A stretch of 64,000 nt of DNA from Escherichia phage ECML-359, in sequence record OL631482.1; one strand, 5' to 3'. The position numbers were made by a program, and so were the translations under genes. The notes under the pieces are model-generated. The model ran no database searches. It was not told where the DNA came from and saw only the letters and a program-made list of their open reading frames with translations. Positions 3,087 to 46,616 of the stretch are shown piece after piece. Within the stretch, counting starts at the first letter, position 1. Every line of letters starts with the position of its first letter.

Positions 3087-3512
3087 TTATTTTTGAGCTT
3101 TGCGGAAGTTGGAAGCATATGACTGAACAACAGTCTTTTTGATATCATGGGTGTTAACCAGAACATCAATCAGGGCGCGGCGAGCTGCACCATCTGCCAT
3201 ATCAATTTCTGCAAATGCCTGGAAGCAAATGTCACGAGCATTACCAGATTTGGACTGGATTTTTTCTTCTTTAACTTCTTCAATTGGGAATTCAATCATT
3301 TCAGCTTGGATTAATTCAATGATAGATTCTTTTGACTGTTTGGTGTTTACCTTCAGTTCAGAATTAAGGGACTTAGCGATGGCAACAATCTGGGTTGAAG
3401 TCAGATGAATAAGTGCATCTTCACGAATGCAGATTTCACATACTTCGTCGGCAACCATTTTGTTAGTGATGCGGGTAACAGAGAATGCAGAAGTCAGGGT
3501 CAGGAAGTTCAT
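3087..3512 (-). CDS. hypothetical early protein with shared C-terminal module
   Basis: ORF track 3087..3593 trimmed to ATG (MNFLTLTS...) with GGAGA RBS; C-terminal DGAARRALIDVLV...VVQSYASNFRKAQK. Confidence 0.6.
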   Translation of the reverse strand: MNFLTLTSAFSVTRITNKMVADEVCEICIREDALIHLTSTQIVAIAKSLNSELKVNTKQSKESIIELIQAEMIEFPIEEVKEEKIQSKSGNARDICFQAFAEIDMADGAARRALIDVLVNTHDIKKTVVQSYASNFRKAQK

Positions 3513-3600
3513 TTTATTTCTCCAAAGTTTTGTTTGATTCAGTGTGTAACTCAGTATGGAATCATTATGCATCCAGTCAATTCGGATGTACACTACTTTT
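3513..3600 (-). promoter_or_regulatory. early promoter (-35 GTGTAC, 17-nt spacer, -10 CATAAT) with conserved leader
   Basis: same leader ccatactgagtta... as neighbouring cassettes. Confidence 0.55.
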
Positions 3601-3617
3601 TGAAGAAATATTAAAAA

Positions 3618-3637
3618 TAAACCCGCCGAAGCGGGTT
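3618..3637 (-). terminator. hairpin terminator
   Basis: aaacccgccgaagcgggttt. Confidence 0.5.
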
Positions 3638-3640
3638 TGA

Positions 3641-4195
3641 TTAGTTCTTATAAAAGCGGAACGGATTTATATGAAAGGCGAGCATAGCCTTAGGGATTGG
3701 TCGGGACAGAAGACTCTTGAGCTTCCAGCCACAATAAACGCGCAGATAAAAGGTGATTCCACCGACCTTGAGATAAGGAACAGAAGCAAAAACACCCCAG
3801 GCATTATCCGTCCACATCCAGAGCCATCCGTGATGAGCTTTATCCGGGGAGCCGGATTCAACATCAGGATTACCTTTATAATGGAATTCTGAATTGCAAT
3901 CACGACCGAGCTTGTGGTAAGCAAAATTGTATGCTTTGTTTCGCCAGAGCCAGGCTACTCGTTGGAAGTAAACACCTAATGGCCATTTTCGGATTTTTGA
4001 CCAACGCTCGACATGACCCCGGTCACCATCAATCGGATTATCATAAGTCATCATCCAATCAAACCCGAACGGAAGTTTACCAGTCTTTTTATTATGGAAT
4101 GGAACTACAAATGGAGCCAGGATAACGGCCAGAATCATGGAGATAAAATCCAGTGGAACTAACAGAATCCAACTCAAATATTTTAACAGTTTCAT
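3641..4195 (-). CDS. membrane-anchored Trp-rich protein, unknown function
   Basis: ORF track 3641..4273 trimmed to ATG (MKLLKYLSWILL...); N-terminal TM helix; hairpin terminators on both sides. Confidence 0.6.
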   Translation of the reverse strand: MKLLKYLSWILLVPLDFISMILAVILAPFVVPFHNKKTGKLPFGFDWMMTYDNPIDGDRGHVERWSKIRKWPLGVYFQRVAWLWRNKAYNFAYHKLGRDCNSEFHYKGNPDVESGSPDKAHHGWLWMWTDNAWGVFASVPYLKVGGITFYLRVYCGWKLKSLLSRPIPKAMLAFHINPFRFYKN

Positions 4196-4223
4196 ACGTT
4201 TCTCTTTAGTTGATTTATAAAAA

Positions 4224-4246
4224 AGCCCCAACCTTTCGGAAGGGGC
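4224..4246 (-). terminator. hairpin terminator after 4285..4668
   Basis: agccccaacctttcggaaggggct. Confidence 0.45.
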
Positions 4247-4284
4247 TATACCTTGTCGGGGTTCCACCTGCAAGGCAAGTGTTC

Positions 4285-4668
4285 TTATCCGCGAGCGAAT
4301 GCCATTGCGGCGCGTTCGTTGGCACGGTCGGTGATGTTCAAGAATTTATCACGAGCGATTTCGATTGGAGCGCCAACCCAGTCAGCAGCACCATTACCTG
4401 GAGACTGTTTAGGGCGAACCATATAAGTTGAAACTTTAGAACCGGCCAGTTTGGCACCTGGTGCCGCGGCATTTTTAACGTCTTTAGCTTTGATGCCAAA
4501 CCCAGTTACGATACCCCAAGAAACACCATTAACTGGTTTCTTGAACATAACACGGTCACCAATTGAAACACCGGCTTTTTCTGGAGCCACTAAAGAAAAT
4601 TTACCAGCTTCAGTCAGTACGGATTCGGTGATGGTATTGCGATTTAAAAATTCTGCATATGTAAGCAT
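4285..4668 (-). CDS. internal-protein-like protein with capsid-targeting-like N-terminus
   Basis: N-terminus MLTYAEFLNRN resembles T4 internal-protein leader MKTYQEFIAEA; TATAAATA late promoter on minus strand just upstream (about 4702-4709). Confidence 0.55.
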   Translation of the reverse strand: MLTYAEFLNRNTITESVLTEAGKFSLVAPEKAGVSIGDRVMFKKPVNGVSWGIVTGFGIKAKDVKNAAAPGAKLAGSKVSTYMVRPKQSPGNGAADWVGAPIEIARDKFLNITDRANERAAMAFARG

Positions 4669-4701
4669 TTTGTTTTTCCATTATTAGGGTTGTTGTTAAT
4701 A

Positions 4702-4709
4702 TTTATATT
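4702..4709 (-). promoter_or_regulatory. late promoter TATAAATA
   Basis: reverse complement of tatttata about 40 nt upstream of ATG of 4285..4668. Confidence 0.5.
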
Positions 4710-4715
4710 CCATAG

Positions 4716-4900
4716 TACCGGATGCACCATCCGCTCGGATTTCTCATACTACCGGACGCACCGTCCGCTCTGGAAAAACTCCGTTAAAAGGGTGCGCCGT
4801 TTCAGCTGTGGTAGTAAAGAACCAGAACACAGTAAAACTGTGGGAGGAACTATACTTCAGGGAACGTCAGTCCGACGACTTACCGGTAGCGACCCGGTTT
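4716..4900 (-). ncRNA. candidate small structured RNA downstream of the tRNA genes (position analogous to T4 stable RNAs C/D)
   Basis: two near-identical short hairpins (ccggatgcaccatccg / ccggacgcaccgtccg) as a direct repeat; no convincing ORF; same strand and just downstream of tRNAs. Confidence 0.25.
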
Positions 4901-40707: not shown

Positions 40708-40740
40708 AAAAAGGGACCCTTGAGGTCCCTTTCTTGTTTT
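40708..40740. terminator. bidirectional hairpin terminator between gene 23 and the minus-strand 93-aa ORF
   Basis: aaaagggacccttgaggtccctttc flanked by A-run and T-run. Confidence 0.6.
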
Positions 40741-41021
40741 CATACCATACCATTTAAATGAACTTCTACCCGGCGCTTGATGAGGTCTCTGAAGTTAACA
40801 TTGTTTTCTTGAAGTTTCAACCAGTTACCATTTTTATCTTTAGTGTGAGTAGAATAATTACCATTCCACCAGAAATCAGTGTCATATGCTAAGTTTTCAT
40901 ATTTTTTAACTAGTTTGTTCAGAGCATTACCATTAACACCATTTGGGTATTTGTTGACCAATGCAATAACTTCAATTTCCAATTTTTTAAAGGTGTTCAG
41001 AAGGAAAGTTGCTTTGTTCAT
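40740..41021 (-). CDS. hypothetical early protein (93 aa) in the gene 23-24 intergenic slot
   Basis: clean ORF; GGAG RBS; strong early promoter cassette 41022-41100 upstream. Confidence 0.6.
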   Translation of the reverse strand: MNKATFLLNTFKKLEIEVIALVNKYPNGVNGNALNKLVKKYENLAYDTDFWWNGNYSTHTKDKNGNWLKLQENNVNFRDLIKRRVEVHLNGMV

Positions 41022-41100
41022 TTTTAAACTCCAGGTTTTGTTTGTTAACTCAGTATGGAATCATTATGTCTTATCTTAATCTGGTTGTAAACAACTTTTA
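41022..41100 (-). promoter_or_regulatory. early promoter cassette (-35 GTTTAC, 18-nt spacer, -10 CATAAT, conserved leader)
   Basis: leader matches copies at about 2521, 3021 and 3541. Confidence 0.6.
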
Positions 41101-41106
41101 TAAATA
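41099..41106 (+). promoter_or_regulatory. late promoter TATAAATA (gene 24)
   Basis: exact TATAAATA about 25 nt upstream of ATG at 41133. Confidence 0.6.
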
Positions 41107-41132
41107 AAGTATATCACAAAAGGAAAGCGCAA

Positions 41133-42413
41133 ATGGCAAAGATTAACAAATTACTGCGCGAGTCAACTATTACTACCAGCAACTCCTTGGGCCGCCCGAA
41201 TCTTGTTGCTTTGACCCGCGCTACGACTAAATTGATTTACCGCGATATCATCGCTGAACAACGTACTAACCAACCTGTTGCTGCACTGTATGGTGTTAAA
41301 TATCTTACTCCTGATAACGAATTCAGTTTCCAGACGGGCGCTACTTATGGAGGTGAAGTCGGTTCTAAAGACCGTACAACTATTCCAGAATTAGCTACAG
41401 CCACTCAGCCTGTTGCTAAAGGCGAATATGTAAAATACCAAAATATCGTTTACAAAGCTCTGGTTGATAATCCATTTGCATCGACCACAGAAACAGTGTT
41501 ATCTGATGTTCTGCAAGAAGGTCTTATTGCATCGACTATTCGTTTAGTTCCTGATGCTGCACACACCGAAAAATTCGAAGCTGGTGATGTTGAAATTAGC
41601 AATGCTGTATTCCAGGTTAATAAATGGAATGCTCCGGTTAAAACACGTAAATTGAAAACTGCATTAACTGTTGAACTTGCTCAGGATATGGAAGCAAATG
41701 GTTTTAACGCTCCTGCATTCTTGGAAGACCTGCTTGCCACTATTATGGCAGATGAAATTAACAAAGATGTTCTTCAGTCTCTTATTACCGTTTCCAAGCG
41801 TTATAAAGTAACTGGTGTTTCTGACAATGGCACCATCGATTTAACATACGATGCAGCCCCAGAAGGTGCACGTAAACTGTACGAACTGGTTTGCGAAATG
41901 AACTCCGAAATTCAGAAAACTACATCTTATTCCGGTACCTTTGTTGTTGCCTCTAGCCGTGTTGCTGCTATGTTGGCCGGTTCTGGTTGGTTGAAACACA
42001 GGCCAGAAGACGAACAGTGGCTCCCCGAAACAGCGTACGGTTATTTGATTAATGGCCTCCCTGTATTCTGTGATGTTAACAGTCCATTGGATTATGTAAC
42101 TGTTGGTGTTAAAGAAAATTACGGCGGAAACGAAGTCGTAGGCTCAATTTTCTATGCTCCTTATACCGAAGGCCTGGACTTGGATGATGAAGAGCACGTT
42201 GGTGCGTTTAAGGTCATTGTGGACCCAGACAGCTTGCAGCCATCTATCTCTCTGATGGTTCGTTACGCACTTTCAGCTAACCCGTACACCGTTGCTAAAG
42301 ACGATAAAGAAGCTCGTATTATCGATGCAACCAATATGGATTTAATGGCCGGTCAGAGCAATATGTCTTATCTGCTCGGTGTTAAACTTCCGCCAATCAT
42401 TTATGAGGCGTAA
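41133..42413 (+). CDS. 24: capsid vertex protein gp24
   Basis: MAKINKLLRESTITTSNSLGRPNLVALTRATTKLIY...; 426 aa; gp23-fold vertex protein. Confidence 0.9.
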   Translation: MAKINKLLRESTITTSNSLGRPNLVALTRATTKLIYRDIIAEQRTNQPVAALYGVKYLTPDNEFSFQTGATYGGEVGSKDRTTIPELATATQPVAKGEYVKYQNIVYKALVDNPFASTTETVLSDVLQEGLIASTIRLVPDAAHTEKFEAGDVEISNAVFQVNKWNAPVKTRKLKTALTVELAQDMEANGFNAPAFLEDLLATIMADEINKDVLQSLITVSKRYKVTGVSDNGTIDLTYDAAPEGARKLYELVCEMNSEIQKTTSYSGTFVVASSRVAAMLAGSGWLKHRPEDEQWLPETAYGYLINGLPVFCDVNSPLDYVTVGVKENYGGNEVVGSIFYAPYTEGLDLDDEEHVGAFKVIVDPDSLQPSISLMVRYALSANPYTVAKDDKEARIIDATNMDLMAGQSNMSYLLGVKLPPIIYEA

Positions 42414-43697
42414 ATGCAAAAGATTAATGCACTAATTCACGAATCAACATTAACGGCGGCCAACCAGGTCGCCCGTCCTAATTTGCTTTCTTATACCCAG
42501 GCTACGAATAAACGAATTTTTAAAGCACTCGTGGCCGAACAGAAAACTACCCAGCCTGTTGCAGCCCTGTATGGTGTTCGTGTTCTGAACCCAGATGATA
42601 AAATGACTTATCTCGGTGGAGCAACATTTGCAGGTCAGATTGGTATGTTCGAGCGTAAGAATATTCCAGAATTTACAAACAAAGACGAAGCTTATGCAGT
42701 CGGCGATATGTTCCAGTTTGAAAGTGTTGTGTTCAAAGTTTTGGAAGCATCCCCATTCGCCGGTACACTCGAAACTGATTTAGGTGAAGTTATTTCTGAA
42801 GCCATTGCTGCTGGGCATATAAGAATGATGTCAGATGCTGCTTTCACTGATAAATTTGAAAAGGGGCATCCTGAAATTGCTGAAGCTGGTTTTCGTATCG
42901 ATAAATGGCAGACTGAAGTTAAATCCAGAAAGTTGAAAACTTCTTTAACTGTCGAGCTTGCCCAGGACCTGGAAGCAAACGGTTTTGATGCAACAGACTT
43001 CATCGATAATATTCTCGGCATTCAAATGGCAGAGGAAATTAATAAGGATGTACTGCAATCTCTTATTACTGTTAGTTCCCGTTTCAAGGTGCAAGGTGTT
43101 TCTGAAAAAGGTGTATTGAATCTTACTGACCCGAAATATGATAACGCACAGGACCGCGCACGAACCCTGTATTATTATATGTGTGAAATGAATTCTGCAG
43201 TTCAACGTCAGACTTCGTTTGCTGGTACATATGCAGTTGCTTCTTCCCGTTGTGCAGCTATTTTAGCCGCTTCTGGCTGGGTTGAGAAAAAGGAAGACCA
43301 GGATGAATTGGCCTATGGTGTTCTGAAGAACGGTTTGCCTCTTTACGCTGATATGAATAGTCCATGCGATTATGTTATTGTTGGTGTAAATGCAGATATG
43401 GGTGAAGGTCAGACGGTCGCATCTTTATATTATGCGCCTTATACGGAAGGACTTAGCGAAGTTGATGATGAGGGGGATACCTCGGTTGGGGAATTCAAGG
43501 TTATTGTTGACCCTGAAAGCTTACAGCCTACGGTTGCACTGTTAGCTCGTTATGCTTTGACTGCAAACCCTTACACCGTTGCTAAAGATGATAAAGAAGC
43601 TCGCCTTATTGATGGAGCTGATATGGATAAGATGGCTAACCAAAGCCAATTGAGTTCTTATCTTGGCGTTAAACTTCCACCGCTGGAAAAAGAATAA
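42414..43697 (+). CDS. capsid vertex protein gp24 paralog (diverged second copy)
   Basis: 427 aa colinear with preceding gene; roughly 55-60% identical by eye over the N-terminal 60 residues. Confidence 0.85.
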   Translation: MQKINALIHESTLTAANQVARPNLLSYTQATNKRIFKALVAEQKTTQPVAALYGVRVLNPDDKMTYLGGATFAGQIGMFERKNIPEFTNKDEAYAVGDMFQFESVVFKVLEASPFAGTLETDLGEVISEAIAAGHIRMMSDAAFTDKFEKGHPEIAEAGFRIDKWQTEVKSRKLKTSLTVELAQDLEANGFDATDFIDNILGIQMAEEINKDVLQSLITVSSRFKVQGVSEKGVLNLTDPKYDNAQDRARTLYYYMCEMNSAVQRQTSFAGTYAVASSRCAAILAASGWVEKKEDQDELAYGVLKNGLPLYADMNSPCDYVIVGVNADMGEGQTVASLYYAPYTEGLSEVDDEGDTSVGEFKVIVDPESLQPTVALLARYALTANPYTVAKDDKEARLIDGADMDKMANQSQLSSYLGVKLPPLEKE

Positions 43698-43717
43698 GGG
43701 CCTTGCGGCCCTTTTTT
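43696..43717. terminator. bidirectional hairpin terminator (second gene 24 copy / rnlB)
   Basis: aagggccttgcggccc followed by tttttt. Confidence 0.6.
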
Positions 43718-44723
43718 ATTCACTAATTAATGCAATCCATACATGTCTTAATGTTTCTTTTACATTTGCGATAAGTTGCTTTTTAACTTCAACAGGATTT
43801 TCTGTCTGGGTTAATTCAAGTCCTTCACGACCCGCTTCTTCCAGGATATCCTGAACAGTCAAACCCATTACCTTCCCAAAATCCTTCGGCGATACTTCCC
43901 CAATCTTACTGATAACATTGTTAATACGGTTGACAGTCACATAATCAGTAAACTTCCATAAAACATCCAGGTCTTCCTGGGACAACACAACAGCAGCCTT
44001 AATAGGCTTATCAGACTTTTTCTTTTCGCTGAATTTAGAGTTCTTACATTTAATCGCTACACGCTCGCCGTTAGGTAACCATGCAGGAACATCAGGTTTT
44101 AATACAAATCCTTCAGCAGTGAATACTTTACCTTCCACCTTTGCATCAAAATCAGTGGTATTTGCTGTAGTCAATCCTGCGTTATCCACTGTAAAATTGT
44201 AATCAGGGACCACAGAATCCAGGTCATTAGGGAGCTTAATCAAGTCTTCAAAGCTTCCGGTAGCCAGGCGCGGAGCAACTTTAAACTTATGAATAATACA
44301 AAAGGCTTCCATCAGTGTGTCAGTCAGGACGGATTCAGTTCCATCTTCTTTAGTAACGCGAATATCAAACACATAAAAATCTTTATCACCGTAATCCACA
44401 TTCTTCTGGATACCTGCCCCGGCAAACTCACCATAAATCTGATATGCCTGGTAATTAATATCCTGCAAAAGTTTCTGCACAGATTTAATAGAATCTGCGT
44501 AGTTCTTTAATACAATTTCATAACCATAGAAATCTTCTGCAGGTAGGATAGGTCCAGTGCGTTTCGCGCATGTCACATTGTCTTGTTCAATGATTAATGA
44601 AAAGTTGGTACCATGAATTTTCTCACGAGCTACCCATTCACCGCTGGTGAAGCCTTGCAGGCGAATCTTTTCAATGAACTTGTTATTATAGTGATTTTCA
44701 AGGCTGTTGTATTTCTTAAACAT
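43716..44723 (-). CDS. rnlB: RNA ligase 2
   Basis: [19 protein letters not shown]...[13 protein letters not shown] (nucleotidyltransferase lysine motif KxHG); 335 aa. Confidence 0.93.
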
Positions 44724-44808
44724 AATCTCTCACTTTTGATGTTATAAATATCATTATAAATTAGACCCGCTATACTTTCTTTCTTTGAAAGGAATTAATA
44801 GTCACAAA

Positions 44809-45482: not shown

Positions 45483-46616
45483 TTAATAAACGTAATCGTA
45501 TATAATACCAGTTTCTAAAGCGGTGCGATGAATAACTCGACCATTACGAGATTCTTGTACATCAACCTCTGGATAGTCGGTAATCATTTTTTGAAGTGTG
45601 TATCGGTGCAAATAATACGGGCTATCCGGGTCATCAGTTTTCCAGTCTTGGCCGGCAAGAGTCATTTTCTGAATTTCATCCATAACCCACCAACCACACC
45701 AGATATAAGCTGAATTACGTACTGGCAATGGGTGAATATATGGTAATTCGCCATCTGGAACTGGTGCGACTTTAGCCGTGACTGTTACATTACCAGTTTT
45801 GGTAACGGTTACAGGGTTATAATCTGTAGCAGATACAACAACAGAAACTTCAATTAACTGGGAACCTTCGGCGCTTGTATCGATTGCTAAAGTATCCGTG
45901 GTACCAGCGACTGGTGAACCATCTTTCTTCCAAGAATAGGCAAAAGTAGCACCAGCAGGCGCACCGGCTACAGTAGCTTTAAAAGAAGCCGGAGTTCCTT
46001 CAGGAACATTAATAGAGGTCGGTGCTAAAGTAACAGAAACACCCGACATAGTTTTCTTAACAAAAGTTACCGCAGCTCCTTTAGATGCGGTGCCATTATT
46101 ATAATCGGGTGCAGAAACAGTAACTTCACAGTTCAATGTATAATTTGCTTCTGCTGATTCGGTGACGGTAATAGTTTTACCAGTTTGACCTGCGATTACG
46201 CTAGTGTTACGTTTCCAAACGTAAGCGATTGTTGCACCAGAAGGAGCGCCTGTCACGTTAGCAGTAACAACTTGAGATTGCCCCACTTCTTTAGTAACAG
46301 AGGCAGGGTCTAAAGTCAATGTAATAGCAGGCATTGTTTTATTCTGGATAGTTAAAGTTGTCTCAGCCTCAGCAGTTTCCGGTTCACCGTCTGCCGGAGT
46401 GGTAGTTGCAACAACTTTAATAGTCTTACTGCCTGCTGGGCCAACAGCGACATAAGTCATTGCTGCAGTCACAGAAGATTGAGGAACGCCATCAACGGTC
46501 CATACAAATGATTCAACACCTTCAGCTGCAGCGCCAGACCCGGTTGCAGTGAAATTGGTTGTTGCTCCAATAACGGCCGTAGCCGCCAAAGGAGCAATAG
46601 CTACGGTATAAGCCAT
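45483..46616 (-). CDS. hoc: outer capsid decoration protein Hoc (Ig-like domains)
   Basis: MAYTVAIAPLAATAVIGATTNFTATGSG...; repeated Ig-like segments; 377 aa. Confidence 0.9.
   Translation of the reverse strand: MAYTVAIAPLAATAVIGATTNFTATGSGAAAEGVESFVWTVDGVPQSSVTAAMTYVAVGPAGSKTIKVVATTTPADGEPETAEAETTLTIQNKTMPAITLTLDPASVTKEVGQSQVVTANVTGAPSGATIAYVWKRNTSVIAGQTGKTITVTESAEANYTLNCEVTVSAPDYNNGTASKGAAVTFVKKTMSGVSVTLAPTSINVPEGTPASFKATVAGAPAGATFAYSWKKDGSPVAGTTDTLAIDTSAEGSQLIEVSVVVSATDYNPVTVTKTGNVTVTAKVAPVPDGELPYIHPLPVRNSAYIWCGWWVMDEIQKMTLAGQDWKTDDPDSPYYLHRYTLQKMITDYPEVDVQESRNGRVIHRTALETGIIYDYVY

Follow-up and report, generated by a model that had tools for sequence, protein, structure and literature searches.

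Two diverged gene 24 homologues side by side in Escherichia phage ECML-359, a VR7-like T4-type coliphage

Why does a T4-type phage carry two adjacent genes for a capsid vertex protein of the gp24 type? The question is raised by Escherichia phage ECML-359, a VR7-like T4-type coliphage of the genus Gaprivervirus, of which we analyzed one stretch of 64,000 nucleotides (sequence record OL631482.1; this whole stretch is the window). An earlier description of the window, made from the letters alone and called here the sequence-only reading, had reported two colinear open reading frames (ORFs) of 426 and 427 amino acids as a tandem, diverged duplication of gene 24. Both ORFs were found at the coordinates given there, both were of gp24 type, and the T4 record, as had been stated, showed a single gene 24, located between segD and rnlB. 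We consider the pair almost certain to be real and functional. The two genes, referred to below with their counterparts in other phages as copies A and B, are as follows.

41133..42413, plus strand: gene 24A, which is 24(1) in VR7 and 24a in JS98; A-type capsid vertex protein; ORF of 426 amino acids matching PF07068.
42414..43697, plus strand: gene 24B, which is 24(2) in VR7 and 24b in JS98; B-type capsid vertex paralogue; ORF of 427 amino acids matching PF07068.

Judged by sequence comparison, 24A and 24B are both full-length homologues of gp24 and are not of gp23 type. Each matched the Pfam family PF07068 (Gp23 family; E=5e-98 for 24A and E=2e-97 for 24B) and phrog_138, and no NCBIfam model matched either protein. 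Residues 1-424 of 24B aligned with 1YUE, the sequence taken from the crystal structure of T4 gp24 (E=4e-148); matches of 24B to gp23 chains were partial, covering residues 156-393, and reached only E~1e-12. Identity to T4 gp24 was 69% for 24A and 55% for 24B, and identity to gp23 was about 28%. The first copy had been described as matching canonical gp24 closely; it is indeed the nearer of the two, but 69% is not a close match. Within the genus, 24A was 97% identical to VR7 24(1) and 24B was 98% identical to VR7 24(2). When 24A and 24B were compared with each other by BLASTP, they were 55% identical with 75% positives over their full length (E=1e-172, 10 gap positions), which agrees with the earlier estimate of roughly 55-60% by eye.

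A prohead-protease site was predicted after residue 10 of both proteins (MAKINKLLRE/ST in 24A and MQKINALIHE/ST in 24B, the slash marking the cut), and the alignment of 24B with the mature T4 gp24* chain, 5VF3_a, begins at 24B residue 11. The (L/I)xE-S cleavage motif was kept in 20 of the 20 B-type protein clusters caught by the N-arm motif that is given below. Relative to T4 gp24 (PDB 1YUE, 5VF3, 7VS5), the ECML-359 proteins are alike in their length of about 427 amino acids, in the (L/I)xE/S motif after residue 10, in full-length homology and, as predicted from sequence, in an HK97-type fold with an I-domain. The locus is also alike, lying after gene 23 and before rnlB and behind a late promoter. 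In contrast, there are two genes here and one in T4.

The tandem pair is already on record in more than 100 public genomes, and the feature itself is already known. Megablast with the pair matched 88 phage records. The best matches, at 98-99% nucleotide identity, were Escherichia viruses TH40, TH22, EAWsc9, and UPEC07 and Yersinia phage vB_YenM_P8; identity was 92% to VR7 and 82% to JS98. In the record of VR7, the type of Gaprivervirus, the genes are labelled 24(1) and 24(2). Other public labels are 24a-24b (JS98, JS10, and IME08), "capsid vertex protein I/II" (VR5, VR20, VR25, and VR26), and "head vertex protein I/II" (CGG4-1 and ZX14). The pair in ECML-359 shares the locus, the A-then-B order, and the abutting junction with the annotated JS98/VR7-type pairs, and nothing essential is different. 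In the full-text literature, with the JS98 genome papers and closed literature outside the scope of the search, no paper was found on the function or origin of the pair. Neither virion proteomics nor cryo-electron microscopy on a two-copy phage was found in the literature, and the T4-like virion mass-spectrometry data that were found there concerned only Jiaodavirus, which has a single gp24.

A gene present once gives a match to each half of a whole-pair query; occurrence was therefore counted by tblastn instead of by blastn coverage of the pair. A B-type gene (E<=1e-185) was present in 113 phage records out of approximately 1450 with any gp24 homologue. At an identity of at least 80%, there were 91 records with the A-type gene and 93 with the B-type gene. 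Pairs were found in Gaprivervirus (ECML-359, VR7, and TH44), Dhakavirus (JS98 and FB), Gelderlandvirus (STML-198 and Proteus phage ABTNLPp2), Marfavirus (MY02 and F48), Kosakonia phage 305 together with its Enterobacter-phage relatives, and an Erwinia phage FBB1-like lineage (FBB1 proteins and the metagenome contigs L021-L026), the B copies of which were only 66-70% identical to 24B of ECML-359. The sample also included phages with one copy, namely T4, JS09 (RB69-like), Karamvirus, Jiaodavirus, Winklervirus, PEi20, an Acinetobacter phage, RB43, a Krischvirus, an Aeromonas phage, and a Providencia phage. In each of the 16 contexts examined, which comprised 10 genomes and 6 metagenome contigs, B immediately followed an A-type gene, and none had a B-type gene without an A-type gene upstream. 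B was intact in each of the 16 and across 21 protein clusters formed at 90% identity. An assembly artefact as the source of the tandem was ruled out by the occurrence of the same pair in about 113 independent phage records and in metagenome contigs.

One genus, Kanagawavirus, was observed with both gene counts: PEi20 (L009) has one gp24, and Kosakonia phage 305 (L016) has the A and B pair. As read from the sequences, this would reflect either a recent loss in PEi20 or an import of the cassette into phage 305.

The origin of the pair was addressed with neighbour-joining trees of approximately 420 aligned residues and split-based bootstrap counting. Copies A and B were 53-57% identical to each other in every genome. 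All core-group A copies grouped together in 100% of bootstrap replicates, as did all B copies (100%), and A and B were sisters in 0%. A clade of core A with the gp24 of PEi20, T4, RB69-type phages, and Karamvirus, excluding B and Jiaodavirus, received 98-100%. Members of this core A/T4 clade have in common a deletion of one residue near T4 residue 239 and an extended loop at T4 residues 288-300; neither indel occurs in B, in Jiaodavirus, in the A copies of the FBB1-like lineage, or in any outgroup. Sites shared exclusively numbered 9 for A with the T4 group, 2 for A with B, 0 for B with the T4 group, and 5 for B with Jiaodavirus. These trees and indels place A with T4 gp24 and not as the sister of B, which forms a separate, old clade that is present in at least six lineages.

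A duplication in situ within the lineage of ECML-359 was ruled out by the 0% bootstrap for A and B as sisters together with the two indels. The sequence-only reading had taken the pair for a tandem duplication of this phage's own gene 24, and this is the claim that did not hold, since 24A goes with gp24 of the T4, RB69, and CC31 type at 98-100% and shares both indels with it.

The FBB1-like copies are informative as to age. Their B copies fell inside the B clade (100%). Their A copies were not part of the clade that joins T4, RB69-type, Karamvirus, PEi20, and core A (98%) but belonged to a wider A-type clade (90%). The A and B subtrees thus mirror each other across the FBB1-like split, which points to a pair older than the divergence of T4 gp24 from copy A. 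If the pair does predate that divergence, the simplest reading is that the T4-type phages with a single copy may have lost B, and the single gene 24 of T4 may be a secondary, derived state. Alternatively to loss of B, the A allele of some lineages could have been replaced through homologous recombination.

The single gp24 of the Jiaodavirus TU02 (L005, positions 3501-4781) was 63% identical to A and 64% identical to B, which makes it the closest single-copy relative of B. It grouped weakly with the B clade (69-85% bootstrap) and shared the five exclusive residues counted above, and its ancestry may lie in the lineage from which B arose. It differs from B in that it has neither the B-type N-arm signature nor the loop insertion described below and is the sole vertex gene of its phage.

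Are the two genes expressed together? The following features were located around the pair.

40710..40732, plus strand: terminator-like hairpin after gene 23, which bounds the gene 24 unit on its upstream side (terminator scan of both strands).
41099..41106, plus strand: T4-type late promoter TATAAATA, an exact motif 27 nucleotides before the start of 24A.
41121..41124, plus strand: Shine-Dalgarno-like AGGA of gene 24A, read from the sequence.
42405..42408, plus strand: Shine-Dalgarno GAGG of gene 24B, read from the sequence within the last codons of 24A, 5 nucleotides before the ATG.
43696..43713, no strand assigned: G+C-rich hairpin with T-runs on both strands, the putative bidirectional terminator of 24B and of the convergent rnlB (terminator scan).

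The TATAAATA at 41099 was the only promoter found for the A-B pair, with no further plus-strand copy of the motif at 41099-44743. T4 and 16 of 19 other sampled relatives carried the same motif at the equivalent position upstream of gene 24, and the context aggaaagcgcaATG around the 24A Shine-Dalgarno sequence was kept in relatives. Motif and terminator scans of the interval from 24A to 24B gave no late-promoter motif and no convincing plus-strand terminator. The copies had been described as separated by one base; there is no gap at all, with the TAA of 24A at 42411-42413 followed by the ATG of 24B at 42414-42416. The distance from the A stop to the B start, 0 in ECML-359, ranged from -4 to +1 across all ten two-copy genomes, and the metagenome contigs showed the same stop-start overlap. 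GAGG was also found at the junctions of Gaprivervirus, Dhakavirus, Gelderlandvirus, and Kosakonia phage 305. These features indicate that 24A and 24B form one late transcription unit with predicted translational coupling. With a single promoter, terminators at the limits, and a stop and start that abut behind GAGG, the A and B proteins should be made together, and a coupled operon of this kind speaks against A and B being regulated differently.

Both copies have been maintained by selection. Ratios of nonsynonymous to synonymous substitution rates (dN/dS, or omega) were calculated by the Nei-Gojobori method; within Gaprivervirus, dS was 0.26-0.56 and thus unsaturated. There, dN/dS was 0.04-0.05 for copy A and 0.008-0.03 for copy B. 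All pairs across five lineages had values below 0.17 for both A and B, with B at 0.008-0.09 across comparisons. When the N-arm, the I-domain with its linkers, and the P/A core were considered separately, dN/dS was no greater than 0.15 in any region of either copy, including the N-arm of B; hence positive selection was not seen in the surface I-domain either. Identity between ECML-359 and JS98 was likewise higher for the second copy (95.5% between 24B and 24b) than for the first (89% between 24A and 24a). A and B are both under strong purifying selection, and B is at least as constrained as A. The sequence-only reading had named inactivating changes in one copy as the outcome that would speak against its view, and the second copy is not decaying: both copies were intact in every relative examined. 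No long tract of similar DNA was shared by A and B; the best was 197 nucleotides at 72%, which gives no sign of recent gene conversion.

What, then, sets copy B apart? We identified 43 positions that are fixed within core A, fixed within core B, and different between them, and these are densest in the N-arm (10 in 49 residues). The outgroup state matched B at 16 of the 43 and A at 25, which suggests that both copies have specialised. Changes in B include V25L, A26S, L27Y/F, T32N, L34R, Y36F, K56R, Y57V, T68G, P244Q, and a loop insertion of three residues. Five of the B states, L27Y/F, L34R, Y57V, G338A, and F341Y, lie at residues that are invariant in all other gp24s, distant ones included. 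Core and FBB1-like B copies alike carry the N-arm signature RPxLL[SA][YF]T[QK]ATN[KR]RIF. The other parts of the B signature are YG[IV]RV[LM]NP (with "RV" at T4 56-57), GGA at T4 67-69, Q at 244, and the three-residue insertion GD[TA] in the loop that corresponds to T4 348-359. The 24B of ECML-359 has the B-type form at each of these places, namely RPNLLSYTQATNKRIF, YGVRVLNP, LGGATF, NAQD, and, in the loop, GDT. It therefore differs from T4 gp24 both by the insertion and by changes such as L27Y, L34R, and Y57V at residues invariant in single-copy gp24s.

The structure of the T4 vertex gives these positions a context. After expansion, residues 26-29 of T4 gp24 make a parallel beta-contact with an I-domain linker that belongs to the adjacent subunit within the pentamer. 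Residues 11-20 extend to the neighbouring hexamer, and the loop at 348-359 is disordered in the unexpanded vertex (PMC9546572). Differences in B fall on both partners of the intra-pentamer contact, that is, on the N-arm strand (T4 25-36) and on I-linker 1 (residues 65, 66, and 68). Changes on both partners would be expected if contacts between B subunits had co-adapted. Within the P-domain, the spine helix, and the A-domain core, A and B were 53-69% identical.

Taken together, the explanation that we favor is that A and B are two anciently diverged, co-made, and non-redundant vertex proteins that may form separate homopentamers at different vertices; we give this a probability of roughly 45%. 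Both proteins would be made together from the single late unit by translational coupling, would enter the prohead and be cleaved by gp21 there, and would stay in the shell as capsid subunits with non-redundant roles. They would then assemble into separate homopentamers, each kind at its own subset of the prolate head's 11 non-portal vertices. Homopentamers are proposed because the fixed changes in B concentrate on the contact between the N-arm strand and I-linker 1. One possible division is 5 portal-proximal and 6 distal vertices, and such a 6:5 ratio would fit roughly equimolar synthesis. The parts of this explanation differ in strength. The presence of both proteins in the virion is probable on the sequence evidence, and the assignment of A and B to separate vertex classes can be offered only tentatively. 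More doubtful is the extended form, in which chemically distinct pentamers occupy different vertex classes (proximal and distal, or apex and rings) and give the head a built-in axial asymmetry, and in which a two-protein system was ancestral for much of Tevenvirinae and T4 was secondarily simplified.

A precedent exists in the gp23 to gp24 duplication of T4-like phages, in which a capsid-shell paralogue was likewise kept beside its parent and took on one sub-position within the lattice (PMC9958956, PMC10580926). That pair, however, has an identity of about 21-28% and a clear division into hexamers and pentamers, whereas A and B are 55% identical and both look pentamer-forming, so that a positional division between them is hypothetical.

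Several points weigh against the explanation of two vertex subunits at different vertices. In T4, the conformation of the 55 gp24* subunits does not vary significantly from vertex to vertex (PMC9546572), so a need for two vertex proteins is not obvious from geometry. Two-copy phages (158-176 kb) and single-copy phages (165-178 kb) overlap in genome size, and no correlate in capsid size is visible. The coupling suggests similar synthesis of A and B, although the actual ratios may differ. As to the history of the pair, the trees of gp23 and rnlB, used as a proxy for the species tree, were too poorly supported to separate loss of B from replacement of the A allele. Finally, the trees are distance trees and the stem of B measures approximately 0.22 substitutions per site, so long-branch effects are possible.

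Of the other explanations, the one that survives best, although we regard it as unlikely, is that both proteins are vertex subunits but are mixed, either in heteropentamers or as A and B pentamers that are interchangeable at the 11 vertices, with a general gain in stability. Co-transcription and coupled translation place the two proteins together in time and space, the 53-69% identity of the P-domain, spine helix, and A-domain core is compatible with joint use, and T4 vertices have no conformational classes (PMC9546572). A second stabilising variant is also conceivable, given that T4 gp24 confers resistance to acid, heat, and protease (PMC10580926). However, a 1:1 mixture is not symmetric in a five-fold pentamer, the clade-wide changes of B on both sides of one intra-pentamer contact look like co-adaptation of B with B, and the strict keeping of both copies over such divergence is not readily explained by interchangeable use.

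A somewhat less probable explanation places B outside the mature shell. B would serve as an assembly factor (a transient vertex plug, a trigger of the gp21 protease, or a determinant of head length) or as a decoy for host sensing of capsids. Attachment of T4 gp24 to prohead vertices is thought to trigger activation of the protease (PMC9958956), and B has a long stem and unique changes at otherwise invariant positions. Yet B retains the full gp24 architecture, including the surface I-domain and the C-terminal region, keeps the protease site, and is as constrained as A in all regions, whereas loss of some parts of the fold would be expected of a decoy or transient factor.

Less probable again is the use of A and B as alternatives that depend on a condition such as temperature or host, with one of them per particle. 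The sequence-only reading had listed a host- or condition-specific alternative among its possibilities. Switching between paralogues is a common route to a wider environmental range, and VR7 and its relatives are low-temperature phages. This possibility is weakened by the lack of a promoter of its own for B, the start of which abuts or overlaps the A stop and is coupled to it in every genome, and by the equal conservation of the pair in Salmonella, Klebsiella, Enterobacter, Kosakonia, Proteus, and Erwinia phages of varied ecology. That B is a redundant duplicate drifting to loss, or that the tandem is an artefact of assembly, has nothing in its favor except that one gene is enough for T4. It is refuted by the dN/dS of B, by the intact state of B in 16 contexts and 21 clusters, and by the presence of the same arrangement in approximately 113 independently sequenced genomes.

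Other genes around the pair were also compared. Between gene 23 and 24A, in the slot occupied by segD in T4, an ORF of 93 amino acids lies on the minus strand (40740-41021). It matched phrog_6003, a family of unknown function (E=9e-47), and no Pfam family; its homologues in VR7 (ORF190c), JS98 (orf173), and the RB69-like JS09 are labelled hypothetical. Downstream of 24B, rnlB (RNA ligase 2; 43716-44723, minus strand) was 96% identical to that of TH44, 87% to that of JS98, and 71% to that of VR7 (L001, 8586-9590). The VR7 rnlB grouped with T4 rnlB (96% bootstrap) even though the two 24B proteins of VR7 and ECML-359 are nearly the same. There seems to be a mosaic boundary after 24B, with a recombination breakpoint at or near the shared bidirectional terminator. 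In JS09 (Mosigvirus; L010, 4815-5814), rnlB is labelled as two coding-sequence pieces of 150 and 720 nucleotides, which suggests that the gene is disrupted or frameshifted in that record.

An ORF of 377 amino acids at 45483-46616 on the minus strand has repeated Ig-like segments and ends in the Hoc capsid-binding motif ESRNG. By synteny with VR7 and T4 it is a Hoc homologue, but its length and repeats differ from those of JS98 Hoc (848 nucleotides) and VR7 Hoc. The FBB1-like lineage has two extra plus-strand genes after 24B, of approximately 332-352 and 165-279 amino acids (L021, 2676-4506; L022, 4890-6427; L025, 5326-6841; L026, 2634-4140), one of which had a faint match to collagen repeats. 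VR7 has, further downstream, a collagen-like ORF196w and an extra Hoc-like ORF197w, both absent from the window. These extra genes of the FBB1-like lineage and VR7 may be additional genes for decoration of the head surface or vertices.

The present analysis adds to the known pair its ancient origin, the clade-wide signature of B on an intra-pentamer contact, the finding that B was never alone, and the possibly derived state of T4. It also adds the single late transcription unit with B coupled to A, purifying selection on both copies, and the protease motif in both. These points make the pair a reasonable experimental target but do not amount to a system of a new kind. T4 serves as the reference for large prolate capsids, and descriptions of its head give it one vertex protein; approximately 8% of the T4-like phages sequenced, among them therapeutic candidates against E. 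coli, Salmonella, Klebsiella, and Enterobacter, carry a second, strongly constrained vertex paralogue. If A and B occupy different vertices, the pair would offer a genetic handle on how a prolate shell distinguishes its caps and on the placement of pentamers in relation to length determination, and would provide two orthogonal vertex display sites for capsid engineering. If the single gene 24 of T4 is confirmed as derived, the reading of the model phage itself would change.

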